Below, one piece after another: positions 18,401 to 61,500 of a stretch of 64,000 nucleotides of DNA. The notes below the pieces were generated by a model. The model did no database searches. It saw nothing but the letters and a program-made list of their open reading frames with translations, and had not been told where the DNA came from. The translations under genes and the position numbers were made by a program. Numbering within the stretch: position 1 is the first letter of the stretch; every line of letters begins with the position of its first letter. The stretch lies in IMG/VR virus record IMGVR_UViG_3300035181_001203, positions 32,001 through 96,000 of that record; one strand, 5' to 3'. This DNA comes from a virus.

Positions 18401-18765
18401 TACCCATTATTATAAGTTGAATAAATAGCTTTAATGTATTGTTCTTTAACAGTTATACTACCAAGGCTTTTACCAAAAGCTGAAAAATCTAACCAAAAAC
18501 TAGCAGGCGTCGGAAGATTATTATTTTGTTGATATGGAGTCCATCCATCCCACAACGTATAATCAGAATATGTTATTTGAAAAGTTACACTGTCACCTGG
18601 ATATGTAATATTATAAGAAAAATAAAACTTTGCTAGTGCATTTGCTTCAAAATGAACTGCTGATATATCCTGACGATAAACAATACTACTTAAAGTTCCT
18701 TTAAATCCATAAATCGCCTGGCTTGTCGAACTGATGTTATGAGATAATAAAACATAATTTTTCAT
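15406..18765 (-). CDS. Large tail-associated protein with Kelch-like, discoidin-like and Ig/PKD-like domains
   Basis: Kelch GG motifs (FLIFGG, IAICGG, LYIAGG), FGIYGSSDGLLW...YLYFKL, SVTVNPTVSTTYTLTVT. Confidence 0.65.
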   Translation of the reverse strand: MKNYVLLSHNISSTSQAIYGFKGTLSSIVYRQDISAVHFEANALAKFYFSYNITYPGDSVTFQITYSDYTLWDGWTPYQQNNNLPTPASFWLDFSAFGKSLGSITVKEQYIKAIYSTYNNGYQDITYISDYKIIDGSTNIYDIYSNQVRFQYIMFPPDASNNNPFGNACGNFSTIGENFYLINSIRSIDIIVKVNHFWELYDGFKFVKKGLMPKNNEFFDTPYNPSKVKLDTCTVFIGGAYSTLQTAEIEVDQKMQLSDGDITENEYYDICGGNSCGGSADAQVVYQGHIIYGSTPYQTNNSFYWKYARPTPVFGVVKIYPATYDNDTKGWSDATYRCSGDTDWNDPGMPPFTPNPACETPIRGYTTAKGWFVAVSGISAPLYKINTSSNYTYIPYKTETISNSIHLFDETTLEMRSIGNLPVGLYGSTCIQIDLNTFLIFGGATTCPRTWMNAPISNKIYKVVVSDDKKSCSISSIGNTKFGHLHASCVKLEGINKPGLIAICGGENYEIYDIINNKTVIYGPLSKGARYGANLSVYIHDGIVDLYIAGGYNRVIQEIPRIDNVSVEISYSGTEPIPDIDSRIKGRVLYAGPILTSGFNNGVADPTKVDYMGSLIKSNLRELFITYADDSSYSYPIYVNIASSMNYDLTDPNCVFYQFKFKTPAIIQGIRFRLKYYSASISQFGIYGSSDGLLWNLIETINISLVDSGMLDNMPIFITNTVKYLYFKLVISKTYYDQTGIQLVHIDIFTDLDVNIPLRNVLPEIPAKYGRDNYNRPVIYGGITPVYFPYKLYDVDTTPGSSPFWIDPVVVLNPGVEVVTLPLTISDDLIFNYTPMLNTTGIFTLTFSDFVKNKLSYIYVNGKSDHALLILSNTLTIDIPSQFPGLTLTSFKLVVNDNSTIMTQTIQASIIDFSIDTSNPIYYGDTINVYICMPVGATAILMPENVPIVNGYNKITATMSGNWYAIVTLGTDTIDTNVIPITLNLKATFTASSNTFINPGDPIVLTAKFNFGTGVITPGDIPILNNGSVTVNPTVSTTYTLTVTYNGIINTFNLTINPIGTATSIIYGQNVIDKVVSTDPPCPVVLGNHYKLYQFNGTVHDDITIYVQSGWGGEEGGLE

Positions 18766-21677
18766 TAGGATAAAACCTCATATCCGGTTGTAACATTACA
18801 TATCATTGGATACATAATACCATTAGAATCAAAACCATCTACGTTAGGATCAAATCCACTATTAGGAACAAATACACGAGTATATAATATAGTTATTGAA
18901 AAATATTCTACATTTGAAACATTTGGAGTAGATATTTTAATTAAATTATAAGCATATGGAGAGGGAGAAGCAGGATTCGTCGTAAAATCTTCACCACTTA
19001 TATATAAAATATCTGAGCATGGTGGAACTAATGTTTTTGTATCTAAAATTGTTGTATATGTATTATCAGAATAAATATTAATTAATATAGAATAAAGTGA
19101 ATTTGGTAAAATTATAGGTCCATTAATAGCACTTAAATTAGCTTTATAAAGATTAGAAACCATTATATAACTACCATTTGTACTGAAAAAATATTCTTTA
19201 TTTAATTCAAGAAATACATTCTCAGTAATAGCAAAAGCTGACTGATTGTTTGTTCCAGGGGTGTCATAGCCACATACAGCGTATGGATTAATCTTCATTC
19301 CATCTGATCTCATAACTATATACTCTTCTAAAACAGTAATATCAATATTAGTATTGTAATAATAATGACATTCAATCTTATGCAATACGTTTGGATTTAA
19401 TTGTACAGGTAGATCACTTAATTTAACATAATCAAAATAACCGCTTGTTATAGACTGATATTCTCCATCATGTCCAAAATAATTAAATAACAAATTATTT
19501 GCAGTAGTATCCATTAATCGTACGTATGCAGTTTTAGGTATTTCGATACCATCAACAAAAGTTTTTGTTGTATATGTCCATAGTTGATCATTATCTCCAA
19601 TTAGTGATGGACTAAGTGTTGTATCTGGCATTCTAATATATCCGGGCCATCTTAAAGGCCACGACGATAATGGTGCGCTGCTATAATTAGACTTAAATAA
19701 ATATTTTAAACTATCTGAATAAGATAATTCATTATATATAAATGGAACTTTAGTAACTGGATTATCGAATCTTTTATATCCAGTTGTATATAAAGTATCT
19801 GTCGTATATAATGAATTTGTTCCAACAACTGAAGCTTCTTCAATATCTAAAGAAACAGTATATGGTGTATTGTTGATATCATAACCACTATCTAATATAA
19901 AATAAAATCCTGCATTAAAATTCAACGCAGCTTGTAACGAAGAGGATGCATCTGTTAAATTTTTAACATTATTATTAATATTTAAATTTGTCGCATTAAT
20001 TATTGCTTGAATAATATATGTTCCATTAAAAAGAAAGTAATTACTATCTAAAGTTAAATCATCATTAATAACGCAATATGATAGATTGTTAAAAACTTGC
20101 TTCCCTTTCATGTAAATTATATAACCTTTAAAATTATTTAAGCTTGTTACTTTTAATTTAACTATTTTTTTATAAAAATTATCATGTTGATAATTAAACG
20201 GAGTAGATTTATTAACTTGTAAAGCTGAATCAAAAGTTGTTCCACCTAAAACGTTAGTATTTTTAATAAAATTCATTGTATATTTATGATAATAATTCTT
20301 ATAAATATACCCTGAACCAAGATATTCAGTATTTATATTAAACACAAGTTGATATTTACCTTCTATAAACACATTCAATTTATCAAGATTTATAAATGTA
20401 TTATGATAAATTCTTTCTGAAGCAACATAAAAGTTATGACTATTTATATAATTAGGAGAACCAATTGGTGCATCAACACTCAATAAAGTATAACTATCTA
20501 TTCTAAAAATATATGTATTAAAACAATTTAAAATTAAATTTCCATTAAATCTTGAACTATATTTTGTGTTTCCACCATCTAAAATATTATTATGTAGCCT
20601 ATAAACAACCGCAAGATAAGATTTTTCTCCACAATAAAAATTCTGGTCAACGCATTGTATATAATTAATAGTTTCGAACAAATTTGGGCTTATTTGATTA
20701 TAATAAACTTTCTTAATTGAGACTATTTCAACATAAATACAACCATTATTATCAATCATTCCATAATGCATTTCAATATTATGACTACTATTTATATAAA
20801 AACTAAGACTATCACTTATTGTATCATCCTGAATAACATTATTAACATAAATATTTAATTTTAATGTATGTAAACTATTTATTGATAAATTAGAAATTAA
20901 TGATGTTAAATCAATTTTACCTTCATAATTTGTAGAATAAACAGGAGCTACAGTTGTTGCTACACTATCTATAACAACTTCTATTTTAGTAATACTATTT
21001 TTATCTAACGTGTTAGAAAACAATCTAAGAGTTAAAATATTTAATAAATCTTTTTCTAACCAATATGATACTACGAATAAATCTGGTAGTGTTGAATCTG
21101 GGAAAGGTAATGTTACATTATCGGTATTCCTGTTTAATAAACTTACTGATGTTTTATTATTTCCTTCACTCACATCTGAAGATGATGAATTTATAGGTTG
21201 TAATTCTGAAATATCATTTGCTCCATAAAATTTTACAATGGTTGAACCATTATCTGCTAATCGCTGATTAACTGGAACTAATTGTGGATTTAAATCTGTA
21301 GAAATAATACTTATATGACCACTATTAATATTTCCAATAACATTATAAACATATTGATATCCATTCCATATTGTCGAACCACTTGGTAAATTAATGGCTA
21401 TTGTCGCATAACATGAATTATTATTACATACAATATTATAGGCTATATCAATATTATCTCCAACATATTGTTGGAATTTTGTAGCATAATCATTATATGA
21501 TATGTTATTATTAAGATATTGAATATTATATGATGTTAAACCATTTATTACTGATGTATATAAATCTTGATATTGATCAAATGGAGTTGAATCATCTAAT
21601 GTTGTATAGAAATAGTTACCATTATTAAAATAGTTATTTGGTAATAAATACCCATCATAAGCAATAAAAATACTCAT
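18765..21677 (-). CDS. Large N/Y-rich virion protein of unknown function
   Basis: 970-aa ORF coupled to its neighbours. Confidence 0.5.
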   Translation of the reverse strand: MSIFIAYDGYLLPNNYFNNGNYFYTTLDDSTPFDQYQDLYTSVINGLTSYNIQYLNNNISYNDYATKFQQYVGDNIDIAYNIVCNNNSCYATIAINLPSGSTIWNGYQYVYNVIGNINSGHISIISTDLNPQLVPVNQRLADNGSTIVKFYGANDISELQPINSSSSDVSEGNNKTSVSLLNRNTDNVTLPFPDSTLPDLFVVSYWLEKDLLNILTLRLFSNTLDKNSITKIEVVIDSVATTVAPVYSTNYEGKIDLTSLISNLSINSLHTLKLNIYVNNVIQDDTISDSLSFYINSSHNIEMHYGMIDNNGCIYVEIVSIKKVYYNQISPNLFETINYIQCVDQNFYCGEKSYLAVVYRLHNNILDGGNTKYSSRFNGNLILNCFNTYIFRIDSYTLLSVDAPIGSPNYINSHNFYVASERIYHNTFINLDKLNVFIEGKYQLVFNINTEYLGSGYIYKNYYHKYTMNFIKNTNVLGGTTFDSALQVNKSTPFNYQHDNFYKKIVKLKVTSLNNFKGYIIYMKGKQVFNNLSYCVINDDLTLDSNYFLFNGTYIIQAIINATNLNINNNVKNLTDASSSLQAALNFNAGFYFILDSGYDINNTPYTVSLDIEEASVVGTNSLYTTDTLYTTGYKRFDNPVTKVPFIYNELSYSDSLKYLFKSNYSSAPLSSWPLRWPGYIRMPDTTLSPSLIGDNDQLWTYTTKTFVDGIEIPKTAYVRLMDTTANNLLFNYFGHDGEYQSITSGYFDYVKLSDLPVQLNPNVLHKIECHYYYNTNIDITVLEEYIVMRSDGMKINPYAVCGYDTPGTNNQSAFAITENVFLELNKEYFFSTNGSYIMVSNLYKANLSAINGPIILPNSLYSILINIYSDNTYTTILDTKTLVPPCSDILYISGEDFTTNPASPSPYAYNLIKISTPNVSNVEYFSITILYTRVFVPNSGFDPNVDGFDSNGIMYPMICNVTTGYEVLS

Positions 21678-23025: not shown

Positions 23026-23405
23026 CTAAATTGACCTTTATCATCTATAATTTTAGGAATATCTGTTATTACTTTTGCATTAATTCTTTTATTACAGATA
23101 AGACTTGAAGGTTTTCCAATATAATTTTTAATAACTTTATCTTTTGATAATTCAAAAACTTTAAGACCCAAATCCTCATTTGAAATACCAGGGTCATTCA
23201 TAATGATATCATGTATGTCAGAATCTTCATACAAAATATGAATATGTATATCTATAAAATTATCAATATAATCACTAATCAAACTAGATAAGCTTTTCCC
23301 ATATTTTTGCAAGATTCTTGTAATCAATAACCATTTTCCCATATTCATATGAAATGAAGTTATTCTTCCCATCATTTCTGTCTTTTTAGTATTCTTAATT
23401 TTCAT
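23022..23405 (-). CDS. Putative ribbon-helix-helix-like regulator
   Basis: RITSFHM..W..I..ILQKYGKSLSSLISDYID beta-alpha-alpha pattern. Confidence 0.35.
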   Translation of the reverse strand: MKIKNTKKTEMMGRITSFHMNMGKWLLITRILQKYGKSLSSLISDYIDNFIDIHIHILYEDSDIHDIIMNDPGISNEDLGLKVFELSKDKVIKNYIGKPSSLICNKRINAKVITDIPKIIDDKGQFR

Positions 23406-23563
23406 GACAGCATCTCGCGCGCTTTAAAAGCAACTACCACAAAAAGAAAAACCAGGGGTTGTTGCATATATGTTCGTATTAGCTGATATTTTATTATTCA
23501 TGAGTATTAAAAAACCAATTAATGATTGTTTTAGATTTGTTAAAAGTGATAAAAATTTCTTTT

Positions 23564-23627
23564 AAAAAAAAAAAAAAAAAAAATAAAGAAAATAATAATA
23601 ATAATAATATATTATTATATATAATAT
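23564..23627. repeat. A20 tract followed by AAT repeats and a TA-rich stretch
   Basis: A20 at 23564-23583, then aataataataataataat and tattattatatataatata. Confidence 0.9.
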
Positions 23628-23664
23628 ACTCTATCGCTACTCCCATCATTAATCGAACCGACTA

Positions 23665-24018
23665 GAGCACAAGTCCAATGGATCTAAGATCTACACTGTT
23701 CATACCACCGTCCTACAATCATATTTGGGATGACCCTCACACGCGAAGGTGGAAAAAGGGAGGAATCCCAAAACTCGCCTCGCGCACGTAGCCGATTTTT
23801 GAAATACGATTGTAGGGCGGGGGTATGAAGGGTCGAAATACTGATTTTCATGGACTTGTGCTCCCCCTGGAATCCATTATCAACATGAGTGTTGGACCCT
23901 TCAAACACGAAACCCCGACATTTGCCGGGGTTTCTACCAGATACTTGTGTTACACTAATCACTTGAGGTCGCTCCACTTTCGTAAAACTCTCAAACTTCA
24001 ACAATAAGTGTCACACAA
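23665..24018. ncRNA. Large structured non-coding element (RNA or replication origin)
   Basis: GC-rich island with nested stems 23665-23677/23851-23863, 23699-23720/23808-23829 and 23724-23731/23765-23772, plus 23909-23917/23926-23934 and 23945-23956/24007-24018. Confidence 0.6.
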
Positions 24019-24068
24019 TCTTGATATAAAGTCAACTTTTTTTTAAATATTGAAACCAATAATATATT

Positions 24069-24097
24069 AGCAAAATATTAAGTCTTTTTGTTATAAC
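24069..24097 (+). promoter_or_regulatory. Conserved phage promoter
   Basis: AGCAAA-N17-TATAAC with extended -10 TG. Confidence 0.65.
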
Positions 24098-24113
24098 AAT
24101 ATTAGGAGGAACA

Positions 24114-25781
24114 ATGAATATTGATATTGAAATTGAAAATGGAGTTGAAGAATATTCACTTTTTAATTATTTTTACATAAGTCAACGCTATTTTGCTTCA
24201 GGGATCAATAGAATCACTGGAGAAACTAAAAAATTTATCACAACAAAAGGTTTTGATCAAATTTTAATGTCCTCTAAAAAGGGAATTGAATATAATTTTA
24301 CGAAAAAACATTTCAATCCATATTTATGTGATAAAGAGAAGCTGATTTTTAGGGAATCACAGCTTATTGAAAATCAAAAAATTATAAAAGATATAGGTCC
24401 ATCTAATTTTAGTGGTAATTATGAAGTAGTTAAAAAAAATCAGCCATATAAAGATAATTTTTATTTTGAGACAGTTCCTTTTAAGGTAGAAGGTTTTGAT
24501 CTTTTTAGATATCAAAACGATGATTTGTATTTTACACAGTATCAATCAGATGCTAGAAATAAATTGCCTCAACTTGTGAATGTTTTTGATGCAAATTTGT
24601 ATGAAAAAATTAATATAGTACATGCAGTTAATGATAATGGTGATGATTATTTTGATCTTAATTGTCTTATTCGTATTTGCGATGCAGAACTTGGATATCC
24701 AGATAAGAATTCATTCTATTCTATTATTAGAGCGGCAGGATTTGAAGGGGTTTTTAAACCCCATAAAATAGGTCCATTAGAATTTGTAAACTTAAAAGAT
24801 ATTTTACAGTTTAAAAATGATTGTGGCAACGCTTATATTCAAAAAAACATAAATAAGAAGCTTTCTAAACGCAAATTTGCATTTAGATACTTATATGAAT
24901 ACTTTAAAATTATAGAATCTTTATGTTCTAAACGTAGAAAACAATCAATAGGCTCACAAACTGGGCCTAAAGAATATAAAAAGGAAGAATTTTTACCTAT
25001 TTTTTACGATAATACAATTATGGATTTTAAAATTGTATATTTTAAAGATATTTTTACTATTGAACGTAAACATGAGCTTAAGAAGATTGTTCCAGGGGAT
25101 CCAATCTTCTATATTGATGGTCATTATGACTTTAATACTGGAGCAGTATCCTTTTATAATTTCAAATCAACAGGTGAAATAGTTAAAAAAATAAAAGAGA
25201 AGTTAGGAACAACCACTTCAATTAGATTTGCTAAAGTTATATCTGAATGGCTTCCTAATACATTTGGATATATTCCCCTTATAGTTAAACTAAGTATGTC
25301 TCAAAAAGCAAATCCTTCTCCATTATCCGATAATCTCACTCTCTATACAATTCCGATTAGAGAAGAAGGTTCAAATGAGGTTTTTGGTGCTGAGACGTAT
25401 GTAAATTTATTTGAGTATTTTGCTAACTTTGGCATACACATTCCACAAATACGTAATATGCTTAATGCAAATAGATTTAGTTCTAAGATCTTTACACTTC
25501 TCGATACAACATTTCCAGTTTATAACGTATGTAAGGATACTCGACGTAAAATACATGAATTTGACGAGATAAATGATCAGGATAATGAGCTTATAAATCT
25601 AATGTTTCCAGTAAGTTACGGAGTCTTAGTAATTTCACACATTCTTGAAAAAGCTGGTATATCCAAAAACTCTTATTGGTATTCCAACCTTAATAGGCTC
25701 TGCCAATCCTTCCCCCCTGGAGATGCAATTTCAACCGTCTATACCCCTCCTGAACTTCAGGAATATTTAAATGAGGAATAA
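24114..25781 (+). CDS. Hypothetical protein (555 aa), first gene of the rightward arm
   Basis: Strong AGGAGG RBS; no motif recognised. Confidence 0.75.
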   Translation: MNIDIEIENGVEEYSLFNYFYISQRYFASGINRITGETKKFITTKGFDQILMSSKKGIEYNFTKKHFNPYLCDKEKLIFRESQLIENQKIIKDIGPSNFSGNYEVVKKNQPYKDNFYFETVPFKVEGFDLFRYQNDDLYFTQYQSDARNKLPQLVNVFDANLYEKINIVHAVNDNGDDYFDLNCLIRICDAELGYPDKNSFYSIIRAAGFEGVFKPHKIGPLEFVNLKDILQFKNDCGNAYIQKNINKKLSKRKFAFRYLYEYFKIIESLCSKRRKQSIGSQTGPKEYKKEEFLPIFYDNTIMDFKIVYFKDIFTIERKHELKKIVPGDPIFYIDGHYDFNTGAVSFYNFKSTGEIVKKIKEKLGTTTSIRFAKVISEWLPNTFGYIPLIVKLSMSQKANPSPLSDNLTLYTIPIREEGSNEVFGAETYVNLFEYFANFGIHIPQIRNMLNANRFSSKIFTLLDTTFPVYNVCKDTRRKIHEFDEINDQDNELINLMFPVSYGVLVISHILEKAGISKNSYWYSNLNRLCQSFPPGDAISTVYTPPELQEYLNEE

Positions 25782-58536: not shown

Positions 58537-61500
58537 ATGTTATATAATAATCTTGGTATACATACTGATTTAACGCTTGGCAAATCTGCAATTCAATTTA
58601 AAGATTTAAAAGATATAAAATTTAACACTCCAATAGCTATCTGTGATAACGGAAATATCTCACAATTAGTTAAATCATTAAAACTTAATAAAAACAATAT
58701 TCCAGCAGTAGAATTATTCGTTATTAAATCATATGCAGAGAAACGAACTCCGATTTATAGAGCGCGTTTCTTTGCATTTGATTTAATAGCATATGAATCA
58801 ATATGTAAAATGATTAATATAGCATCGTTGAATAAATACTATTCTCATAGGATTGAGATTAAAGATTTAATTTTAAATGGAGATATAATAATTATTGTTG
58901 ATTCTGATTTTCTTTTTATTGATCAACTTCCATATGAAAAAACCTATGTTGCGATTAATGCAAATACAGATTTAAGTAGTGCAAATATATTAAAATATAA
59001 ACCTATTTTTTATTATGACTCATATGCTATACACAAAAAGGACATTTCTAAGGTAGAATTATTGTCAGCTAGAGGTTTCAAACATAATAATAAAGTTTGG
59101 TATTATGATGATTCTCACTATCATACAGCTTCATTGATACCAGAGTCAATTACAAATTATCTGAATCTACTTAAGAAGGCTGATCACCCTATTATTAAGT
59201 TTGAAAATAGATATCCAATCTATTGTGAAGGTTCAGAAGATTATTTTGACGTATTAGTATATGCTGGATTTAAGCGAAAGTATCCAAATGCAACACAACA
59301 GGAGATTGAAAGATTAGATTATGAAGTCTCAATCATTAAGAAACTTGGATATCAAGATTATTTTCTCATTAATTGGGACTTTATTAATTGGAGTCGTAAT
59401 AGAAATATTCCTATTGGTCCAGGTAGAGGTTCAGCCGCAGGTTCTATCGTTGCTTATTGTCTTGATATCACTAAACTTGATCCTATTGCTAACGGCCTCT
59501 ATTTTGAGAGATTCTTAAATCCAGAACGAGTAAGTCCTCCAGATATTGATACAGATATAAGCGATATTGATAGAGCGGAAGTTATTGATTATATACGTCA
59601 AAGATATGGAAAAGAAAAAGTTTCTCAAATCATAACTTTTTCTGAATTAAAATCAAAATCTGCTTTAAAAGATGCTGCGCGTTTACATGAAATGGATGCG
59701 TCAGAAGTTAATAGAATAACATCATATTTTCCACCATCAAAATTTGGTATACCTCCTACTCTTGAAGAAGCATATAATGTTGAACTTGTTCGATCTTGGG
59801 CAGATTCACATGCTAGTATTTGGAATGAAGCAAAAGCACTAGAAGGGTTCGTAAGACAAGTTGGAATCCATGCGGCTGGACTAATTATTGCTCCTAAAGA
59901 AATAAATACTCTTACTGGAATCCAGTATGCTAATGGTGAAGCTATATGCCAGTTTGATAAAGATGATGCAGAAAAATTTGGTCTACTTAAAATGGATTTC
60001 TTGGGTTTAGCAACTTTAGGTCTTATAAAAAAGACTCAAGAATTATTAGGTAAATCATATTATGATATGGAAAAAGTTCCATTAGATGACTGGAAAGTTT
60101 ATGATGCGTTTTCCAGGGGCGATACTCATGGAGTTTTTCAATTTGAATCTGATGGAATGAGAAAATTACTTAAACGTATTAAGCCAACATCATTTGCCGA
60201 TATTGCTGCTGCTACCGCTTTATATAGACCAGGCCCATTAATGTCTGGATTAACAGAAAATTATATTCACAATAAACATTCTATTAATCCAGAATATTTA
60301 ATTCCAGAATTTCAAGAGCTTCTGAGTGAAACTTATGGGATATTTGCATATCAAGAACAAGTAATGCTAGTATCACAAAAAATTGCTGGATTTACATTAT
60401 CTAGAGCAGATAATTTACGAAAAGCAATTGGTAAAAAAGATAGAAATTTAATGAAAACTATGGAAGAAGAATTTATTTCTGGTTGTTTGGCTGGTGGACA
60501 GACTAGTGAGAAGGCAGAAAAATTATGGACACAGATAGTATCATTCGCAGATTATTGTTTTAATAAATCACACTCATATGCTTATGCTTTAATTTCTTAT
60601 TGGACGATGTATTTAAAATTAAATTATCCAAAAGAATTTGCAGTTTCATTATTATCATTAGATATGAAAGATAGTTCTGCGCTCCGTTCTCATTTCTTTG
60701 CCTTCAAAGACAAAATCAACTTTATCCCTCCATATATTAATAAAGGTGGAGAGGGTTTTAAGATTTGTGATAATGGTATTATGATGGGATTTGGTTCTAT
60801 TAAAGGAATGGGTAATAGTTCTTCGTCTATAGAAAATAATCAACCATATAAAAATATCTCAGATGTAGTCATTAAAAATAATTTAGATAAAACACAATTA
60901 ACTACATTAATCTATAGTGGTGCATTTGATGAAATGGAGCCTGATAAATCGGTTCTATTAGGAAATTTAGAACGTCTTTTAAAATTTGGAAAAGAAAATA
61001 AGACTTCTGAAATTTTTAATATTTTTGATCCTTCAGAAGTATTTAATTTGGATAGAAGCAGAAAAATTAAATTACCGATTGAAGGATACATGGAGAAAGC
61101 CTGTTATGGCTTTAATATTTATCATGGATTCGTAGGAAAAAATAAATGGTTGATTGATTCATTAGAATCAGATTCTATAATTGGAACTATCATAGAAATT
61201 AAAAGAGCCAAAACTAAAGTAAAACAACAAGATATGGCCATTCTAACAATTGAGACAGCTAAAGGTAATATGAAAGCTGTTTTATTCCCAAATATATATG
61301 ATAAATTTTCAGTTCAATTAGCAAAAGAAGAAACTTATGCATTTAGAGGCGAATTGAAATATGGTAAAAATAATGAAGGTGATGAAGAAGCATCTTTAAT
61401 TGTTTCAGATATGTTAATAGAATCTGGAATTGTAATTAATGAAGTTAAACTAGAAAAAGAAGAAGCAATAACGCAAGGAGAATTTAACAATATCTTGGAT

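Follow-up and report, generated by a model that had tools for sequence, protein, structure and literature searches.

The GC-rich hairpin region described here is one part of a non-coding module that is kept in at least six lineages of uncultured AT-rich phages. It was found in a window of 64,000 nt, which corresponds to bases 32001-96000 of an IMG/VR phage contig (genome G000; 112,653 bp, 31.8% GC, 72% complete according to CheckV), and it fills the gap of 708 nt (23405 to 24114) that separates the first structural gene from the gene of a 555-aa protein. The core of the original prediction, i.e., a non-coding, structured and functional element at the strand switch, is borne out, with conservation in six phage lineages. 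Judged by sequence comparison, the element is new on any of the readings below, with no model in Rfam and no relative in GenBank phages. Most likely, it is a new structured RNA or part of a replication origin. We give a structured RNA module a little less than an even chance, and the form of it that we tentatively prefer is a non-coding transcription unit driven by a leftward promoter (P_L), which would head the virion-structure operon and serve it as gate and leader, with a new structured RNA as its core.

The module and its genomic setting

The module sits between replication genes and virion genes, at the junction of two gene arms. The left arm, on the minus strand, is the virion and tail structure operon; it encodes an SLT lysin domain together with very large proteins that lack a family match. 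The right arm, on the plus strand, encodes a dUTPase, a dNMP kinase, a CYTH protein and a DnaE-type polymerase. A PHROG comparison of 10 large proteins of this phage lineage gave no match. The phages appear to be large lytic types with DnaE-type polymerases.

Relatives were located by pattern-based locus searches, and the six lineages are those of the window (G000), L009 (= L008), L010, L011, G001 and L021. The 555-aa gene directly follows the GC-rich island in the first four. In G001, a complete genome of 157,395 bp with terminal repeats, and in the L021 phage, the 555-aa gene lies elsewhere, among co-directional genes and without an island upstream, and the module precedes a homolog of a 341-aa structural gene in the same orientation relative to the operon. 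In both cases in which the 555-aa gene and the structural operon are apart, then, the module stays with the operon, which indicates that it belongs to the operon and not to the 555-aa gene. Flanking proteins are 41-49% identical between lineages, and blastn between the islands saw no similarity. The order of parts is nonetheless constant: start of the operon, poly(dA)/AT-only tract, GC-rich rod, a hairpin (T1), ~100 nt with block 3, and the leftward P_L (Table 1). The islands have 41-50% GC and a length of ~270 nt across lineages. Two of their conserved blocks lie at the apex of the rod (a CCTCGTGCGCGAG-like sequence and its near-complement) and one at its 3′ base (GTAAGTGCTGA-like).

Table 1. 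Features of the module and its neighbours, with window coordinates and the spacings between conserved parts
Feature	Position	Strand	Basis or remark
First gene of leftward structural operon, 127 aa	23022-23405	-	ORF list
Box AACAACCCCTGG, contains CCCCTGG	23452-23465	-	Read from sequence; 45-60 nt upstream of first structural gene
A20 (23564-23583), then AT-only DNA	23564-23629	.	Sequence
GC-rich rod domain	23630-23905	.	Folding, repeat finder, alignments
P1, closing stem	23665-23677 / 23851-23863		Perfect 13-nt inverted repeat
P2, 28-nt arms	23699-23726 / 23802-23829		89% complementary
Rod, branched apex	23727-23801
Rod, block 1	23734-23749		Alignments
Rod, block 1′	23774-23793		Alignments
Rod, block 2	23835-23844		Alignments; 94-102 nt from block 1 in five lineages, 103 nt in L011
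T1 hairpin, 9-bp GC stem	23909-23934	-	Position conserved, stem sequence different in every lineage; 67-77 nt from block 2
Block 3, GTGTTAC core on plus strand	23945-23968	.	36-39 nt from start of T1; 58-62 nt from -10 element of P_L
P_L: TTGACT, 17-nt spacer ending TGT, GACACT; start near 24000	24007-24035	-	Points leftward into module; -10 element 95-101 nt from T1 (5 of 5 lineages)
P_R: TAGCAA-N18-TATAAC, extended -10 TG at 24089-24090, and AGGAGG ribosome site of 555-aa gene	24068-24109	+
555-aa gene	24114-25781	+	Right-hand neighbour of module in 4 of 6 lineages

The 555-aa protein has 22 homologs with 41-81% identity (the closer ones, P0003-P0008, at 67-81%) and ~65 invariant residues. 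It has no match in Pfam or PHROG, and blastn and tblastn searches of GenBank phages found nothing similar to it or to the element; it is a conserved early protein. Its extended -10 promoter, TGTTATAAC, directly precedes its ribosome site and overlaps a perfect 12-bp palindrome, TTGTTATAACAA (24087-24098), which may double as an operator. The sequence TTGTTATAA(C/T) is invariant in the four lineages with the 555-aa gene after the module. Since this gene has an extended -10 promoter of its own, the island is not its leader.

On the other side, homologs of the 127-aa gene adjoin the module in L009, G001 and L021, and the box AACAACCCCTGG is also found upstream of the homolog in G001. By eye, the 127-aa protein and its homologs resemble DNA binders of the ribbon-helix-helix type, with a beta strand and a helix that are followed by a G-x-S-P-S turn and another helix; the Pfam match behind this, of one homolog to RHH_9, is weak (E = 0.11). 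If the protein were such a binder, a regulator would adjoin the module. As a separate observation, CCCCTGG, mostly as CCCCTGGA/T, occurs in 45 copies in the 112.6 kb of G000 (20 plus, 25 minus) against ~1.3 expected from composition. It is the most over-represented 7-mer of that genome, with copies within and between genes and without strand bias; two are near the module, at 23452-23458 (-) and 23864-23870 (+), and G001 holds 12. The heptamer could mark sites of modification, nicking or recombination.

The element is single-copy in G000 and in the complete relative G001. Searches of IMG/VR with promoter-architecture and block patterns returned no further members of the module, and scans of genome contigs found no relatives. 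The two IMG/VR matches of a 17-mer from the closing stem were in GC-rich coding DNA of unrelated contigs and were set aside as chance. A 106-aa minus-strand ORF (23684-24004) was rejected as a gene, as it has no counterpart elsewhere. In a six-frame comparison of homologous islands, the matches were confined to translated poly-A/AT tracts, with no conserved frame. No tRNA or tmRNA genes were found. G001 has a second GC-rich stretch (53-56% GC) at ~137.5 kb, ~1 kb from the module (L019:1996-2256, minus strand), with a sub-threshold resemblance to Rfam isrG (41 bits, E = 9e-8, against a gathering score of 100); long ORFs cross it on both strands, and it may represent a gene instead of an RNA.

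Folding of the rod

All stems named in the original prediction were recovered by sequence reading and with a repeat finder. The closing stem is the perfect repeat P1, and the 22-bp stem, with one G-U pair and one mismatch, is the core of the longer arms of P2; the 9-bp hairpin is the one we call T1. Two of the predicted features hold in the window and go no further: the 21 x 21 nt bubble, i.e., 21 unpaired nt on each side between P1 and P2, is without counterpart in the predicted rods of relatives, and the stem 23945-23956 / 24007-24018, which pairs at 11 of 12 positions, is not kept in them. An alternative pairing of the window (23823-23837 / 23892-23906) is likewise specific to it and absent from relatives as a conserved feature. 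The flanks agree with their description: the A20 run and AT-only DNA on the left, with TATAAT at 23620-23625, and TTGACT-N17-GACACT on the minus strand (24035-24007) on the right. GC content rises to 41-49% in the element, from 19-30% on either side. Islands of high GC within AT-rich genomes are a recognised sign of structured RNA (PMC6429828). Both strands of a 401-nt stretch fold far better than shuffled sequences (z = -6.3 for plus and -5.95 for minus, with 0 of 100 shuffles as good), and the rod by itself has z = -7.6 (plus) and -5.9 (minus).

All islands fold to a rod, with a long-range closing helix that differs in sequence from lineage to lineage. Pairing was evaluated with the conserved blocks as anchors and against dinucleotide shuffles, in segments that were picked after the MFE folds had been seen. 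For P1, the outermost 80 nt on the 5′ side and the 45 nt that follow block 2 pair with each other better than shuffles do in all six lineages (p 0.0025-0.07, Fisher p = 3.3e-6); for P2, the same is true of the 45 nt before block 1 and the 45 nt before block 2 (six of six, Fisher p = 3.2e-6). Non-nested control combinations gave p = 0.95 and 0.34. These results support a conserved nested topology, P1 outside P2. The MFE z of the whole rod ranges from strong (window, L011 and L021) through moderate (L010) to ~0 (L009 and G001). RNAalifold found no consensus on MAFFT alignments of the rods or of the P_L-T1 region, in which stems were misaligned; these alignments of six sequences (~45-50% identity) are unreliable, and the evidence for pairing consists of anchored duplexes rather than of column-wise covariation counts. 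A single-sequence covariance model of the window rod, R1, scored the relatives no better than background.

The original prediction had proposed a 6S-like polymerase decoy. There is a likeness to 6S RNA (RF00013 and related) in the 199-nt length of the window rod, its closing stem, its large two-sided internal loop and its long internal stem, but the branched apex sets the rod apart. No Rfam 6S model was hit at E <= 10, and a comparable two-sided bubble is missing at that position from the helix lists of L009, L010, L011, G001 and L021. These two features, covariance model match and conserved central bubble, led us to reject membership in the 6S family. More generally, cmscan of the window matched no Rfam family at the gathering threshold, a scan of 23400-24150 at E <= 10 returned terminator-hairpin look-alikes only, and in five relatives no family was matched and no 6S was found at E <= 0.5.

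A putative leader transcript from P_L

P_L is present in all six lineages as (T/G)TGAC(A/T), a spacer of exactly 17 nt ending in TGn, and nA(C/G)A(C/A)T. Promoters of this class (TTGACA, ~12 nt, TGTG, n, nACAnT) recur upstream of protein genes, including a copy 80 nt before the polymerase gene at 58537, and the class is probably an early or middle host-polymerase promoter type of the phage. P_L is the sole copy of its class with more than 600 non-coding nucleotides downstream. Sites of the class were noted at 24035 (-), 27543 (+) and 58457 (+) in the window, at 19335 (-) of the genome and at 18555 (-) and 98812 (-) of G001, and they end in (T/C/G)ACA(A/C)T.

The T1 hairpin is more stable on the minus strand in five of five lineages. 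Its tail has 4, 7, 7, 5 and 2 U per 10 nt on the minus strand against 2, 4, 2, 3 and 3 on the plus strand, the minus strand being richer in four of the five; the exception is L021, where the hairpin has no U tail on either strand. T1 is best read as a putative intrinsic terminator or attenuator of the P_L transcript, which would give an RNA of ~100 nt. A consensus scanner called neither P_L nor T1 in the window, so that the case for both rests on their conservation.

We hypothesize that P_L, as a host sigma70-type promoter of the class found at the DNA polymerase gene, fires leftward from ~24000. T1 would form ~65-95 nt downstream and halt most polymerases, leaving the ~100-nt RNA with a conserved GUAACAC box. 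Polymerases that read through would produce an RNA of ~430 nt, whose body would be a rod of 200-260 nt (P1, then P2, then the branched apex) and which would end at, or pass, the AU-only/poly-U tract just before the structural genes. The module could then act as a gate and structured leader for structural-gene transcription, with a layout like that of the lambda P_R′-tR′ leader, and the rod would be a selected RNA fold, i.e., a binding, processing or stability element.

The lambda late leader (P_R′, the “6S” leader RNA, tR′ and Q) is the closest in layout to this arrangement. In both, a strong sigma70 promoter faces the virion or late genes. From it, a short non-coding transcript runs (or, in the module, would run) to a hairpin ~100-200 nt downstream, and several hundred nucleotides without coding sequence separate this hairpin from the first gene. 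The promoter and terminator features of that layout are found here as follows: P_L in six of six lineages, and T1 at 95-101 nt in five of five, more stable on the minus strand in five of five and with 4-7 U in 10 nt in four of five. Unlike the module, lambda has neither a ~270-nt GC-rich rod nor poly(dA) between terminator and genes; there is no sequence similarity, and the phages studied here appear to be lytic with DnaE-type polymerases. Lambda thus sets a precedent for late genes that are preceded by a short, terminated RNA, and leader RNAs of this kind can also act as small RNAs (bioRxiv 10.1101/2024.10.31.621285).

Several points count against the P_L leader. If T1 terminated efficiently, the rod would not be made from P_L. 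The MFE z near 0 in L009 and G001, the L021 hairpin without a U tail and the plus-strand composition and pairing scores of the rod (see below) also speak against it, and an origin would account at least equally well for the skew minimum and for the poly(dA) tract, which is unique.

Origin signals and other readings of the module

The foremost alternative, which we consider somewhat unlikely, is that the module is a replication origin, with the poly(dA)/AT tract as unwinding element, P_L as a source of transcriptional activation and the rod as an initiator site or as a hairpin that, once the DNA is unpaired, signals priming or loading in the manner of plasmid ssi/sso elements. The tract is among the most AT-rich stretches seen, and the run at the module is the sole homopolymer (A or T) of at least 11 nt in G000 and in G001. 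The A runs at the module are A20 in the window, A12, A27, A32 and, in G001, A8; they lie 19-55 nt upstream of the extracted island start in the five lineages with the tract, the L010 contig ending ~35 nt into the AT-only DNA, before any A run. The element is single-copy, lies where the gene arms diverge and adjoins replication genes in four of six lineages. Moreover, the rod pairs without clear strand preference, as a DNA-level palindrome would.

Cumulative GC skew has its global minimum at the island in both genomes: at 56 kb in G000, where the island spans 55.6-56.0 kb, and at 140 kb in G001, where it spans 138.7-139.1 kb. However, this minimum coincides with the switch in gene orientation and is therefore not independent evidence of an origin. 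The island's own GC skew matches that of the rightward arm in five of six lineages, which places the switch at the AT tract. Further points against an origin are the lack of conserved DnaA boxes (across the six lineages, one 8-of-9 match only, in the window) and of direct-repeat iterons in the window's GC island, and the absence of DnaB-type helicase matches in G000 and G001. The same two genomes gave no sigma70-family match. The orientation of the module is fixed relative to the structural operon, and for compensatory upkeep of two nested pairings ~200 nt apart, RNAs offer far better documented cases than do the origins of phages with double-stranded DNA. The origin part of the original prediction is partly supported, by the sole long homopolymer, the skew minimum and a conserved promoter facing the tract, but without DnaA boxes in any lineage or iterons in the window and with a skew signal that is not independent.

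The same prediction had named a transcript R-loop of the ColE1 or T4 kind. In the window, P_L (minus strand) is aimed at the A20/AT tract ~420 nt away, and the other five lineages are arranged likewise. The resemblance to ColE1 RNA II, T4 oriF/oriG and the T7 primary origin lies in a promoter directed toward an AT-rich tract, a skew minimum at the site (which here coincides with the gene-orientation switch) and a structured stretch of ~420 nt between promoter and tract (ColE1 RNA II is 555 nt long). On the other hand, P_L-sense RNA has a negative G-C skew in five of six lineages (-0.09 to -0.21), i.e., it is C-rich and not G-rich; it would be poly-U across the tract, where rU:dA is the weakest hybrid, and a terminator-like hairpin stands in its path. 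In T4 and T7, unlike in the module, the unwinding element directly follows the promoter. A persistent RNA-DNA hybrid or RNA primer from P_L therefore looks unlikely.

Single-strand initiation offers another comparison. The ssi and ssoA elements, F plasmid Frpo and the M13 minus-strand origin are imperfect, rod-like non-coding hairpins of 150-330 nt that are GC-richer than their surroundings, lie near origins and are selected for their fold. Such signals are known in plasmids and in phages with single-stranded DNA but not in large phages with double-stranded DNA. Inspection of the rod by eye did not reveal the conserved ssoA loop motif. It is doubtful, although conceivable, that the module is the single-site origin of a clade of large lytic phages, in which a poly(dA)/AT tract, a fold-selected hairpin of ~270 nt and an early promoter are combined and the folded RNA or single-stranded DNA recruits or primes the replisome.

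A second alternative concerns the strand. The rod could be a separate plus-strand RNA gene of ~300 nt, starting at ~23630 at the AT/GC boundary, from a promoter with a UP-like A tract in the AT-only DNA, and ending at T1; the latter could then be a two-way terminator shared with a convergent ~100-nt RNA from P_L. Such an RNA could serve as a decoy or sponge for a protein, perhaps by 6S-like action. Separately, the rod might be a decoy RNA that the phage makes for a host protein. We consider a plus-strand gene unlikely. P_L and T1 favour the minus strand, whereas composition and normalised scores slightly favour the plus strand. On its plus strand, the rod is rich in G or in G+U in 4-5 of 6 lineages, the summed z of normalised pairing is -18.0 and -19.3 on plus against -14.3 and -17.7 on minus, and G-U-type mismatches in the arms number 37 on plus against 27 on minus. 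Raw energies favour plus in four lineages, a difference that shuffles trace to base composition, and special tetraloops do not discriminate between strands. Strand calls from MFE, G-U counts, arm-mismatch types and tetraloops were accordingly set aside, none being decisive and the raw differences being compositional; nor is the single G-U pair, which the original prediction had taken as a hint of the plus strand, evidence for that strand.

Other features bear on a plus-strand gene more directly. The position of the A runs upstream of the island would suit a UP-like element, the final 30 nt ahead of the boundary contain -10-like hexamers in the window and in L009, and in L010 and G001 T1 is flanked by A-rich sequence on its 5′ side and T-rich sequence on its 3′ side. 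Yet neither recognisable promoter class is represented in the AT tract, and in DNA made up of A and T, -10-like hexamers should arise by chance. The plus-strand tails of T1 are poor (2-4 U in 10 nt), preference for a strand is weak and stems in part from composition, and the features specific to 6S RNA fail, with no Rfam match and no conserved bubble.

Finally, it is quite improbable that the fold has no function of its own and the region is a long regulatory spacer with divergent promoters and protein-binding sites, the stems being by-products of quasi-palindromic operators: the best-conserved sequences are indeed quasi-palindromic boxes (CCTCGTGCGCGAG-like, twice, ~40-45 nt apart) and the MFE z is near 0 in two lineages, but the nested pairing is significant in six of six with stem sequences that are not conserved and null cross controls, and GC enrichment and near-fixed spacing extend over ~400 nt.

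A rigidly conserved non-coding module of ~700 bp at the junction of replication and virion genes is likely a main control point in the life cycle of these phages, either a late-gene switch or an origin. The phage lineage is almost unannotated, and its contigs come from lake and bog samples (Trout Bog hypolimnion and a series of peat or bog samples). If the module were the single-site origin outlined above, a phage with double-stranded DNA would have an origin of plasmid style, based on a structured primer or on single-strand initiation. As a candidate RNA family, the module is well defined: it has six diverse members, its blocks are mapped and its fold is nested.
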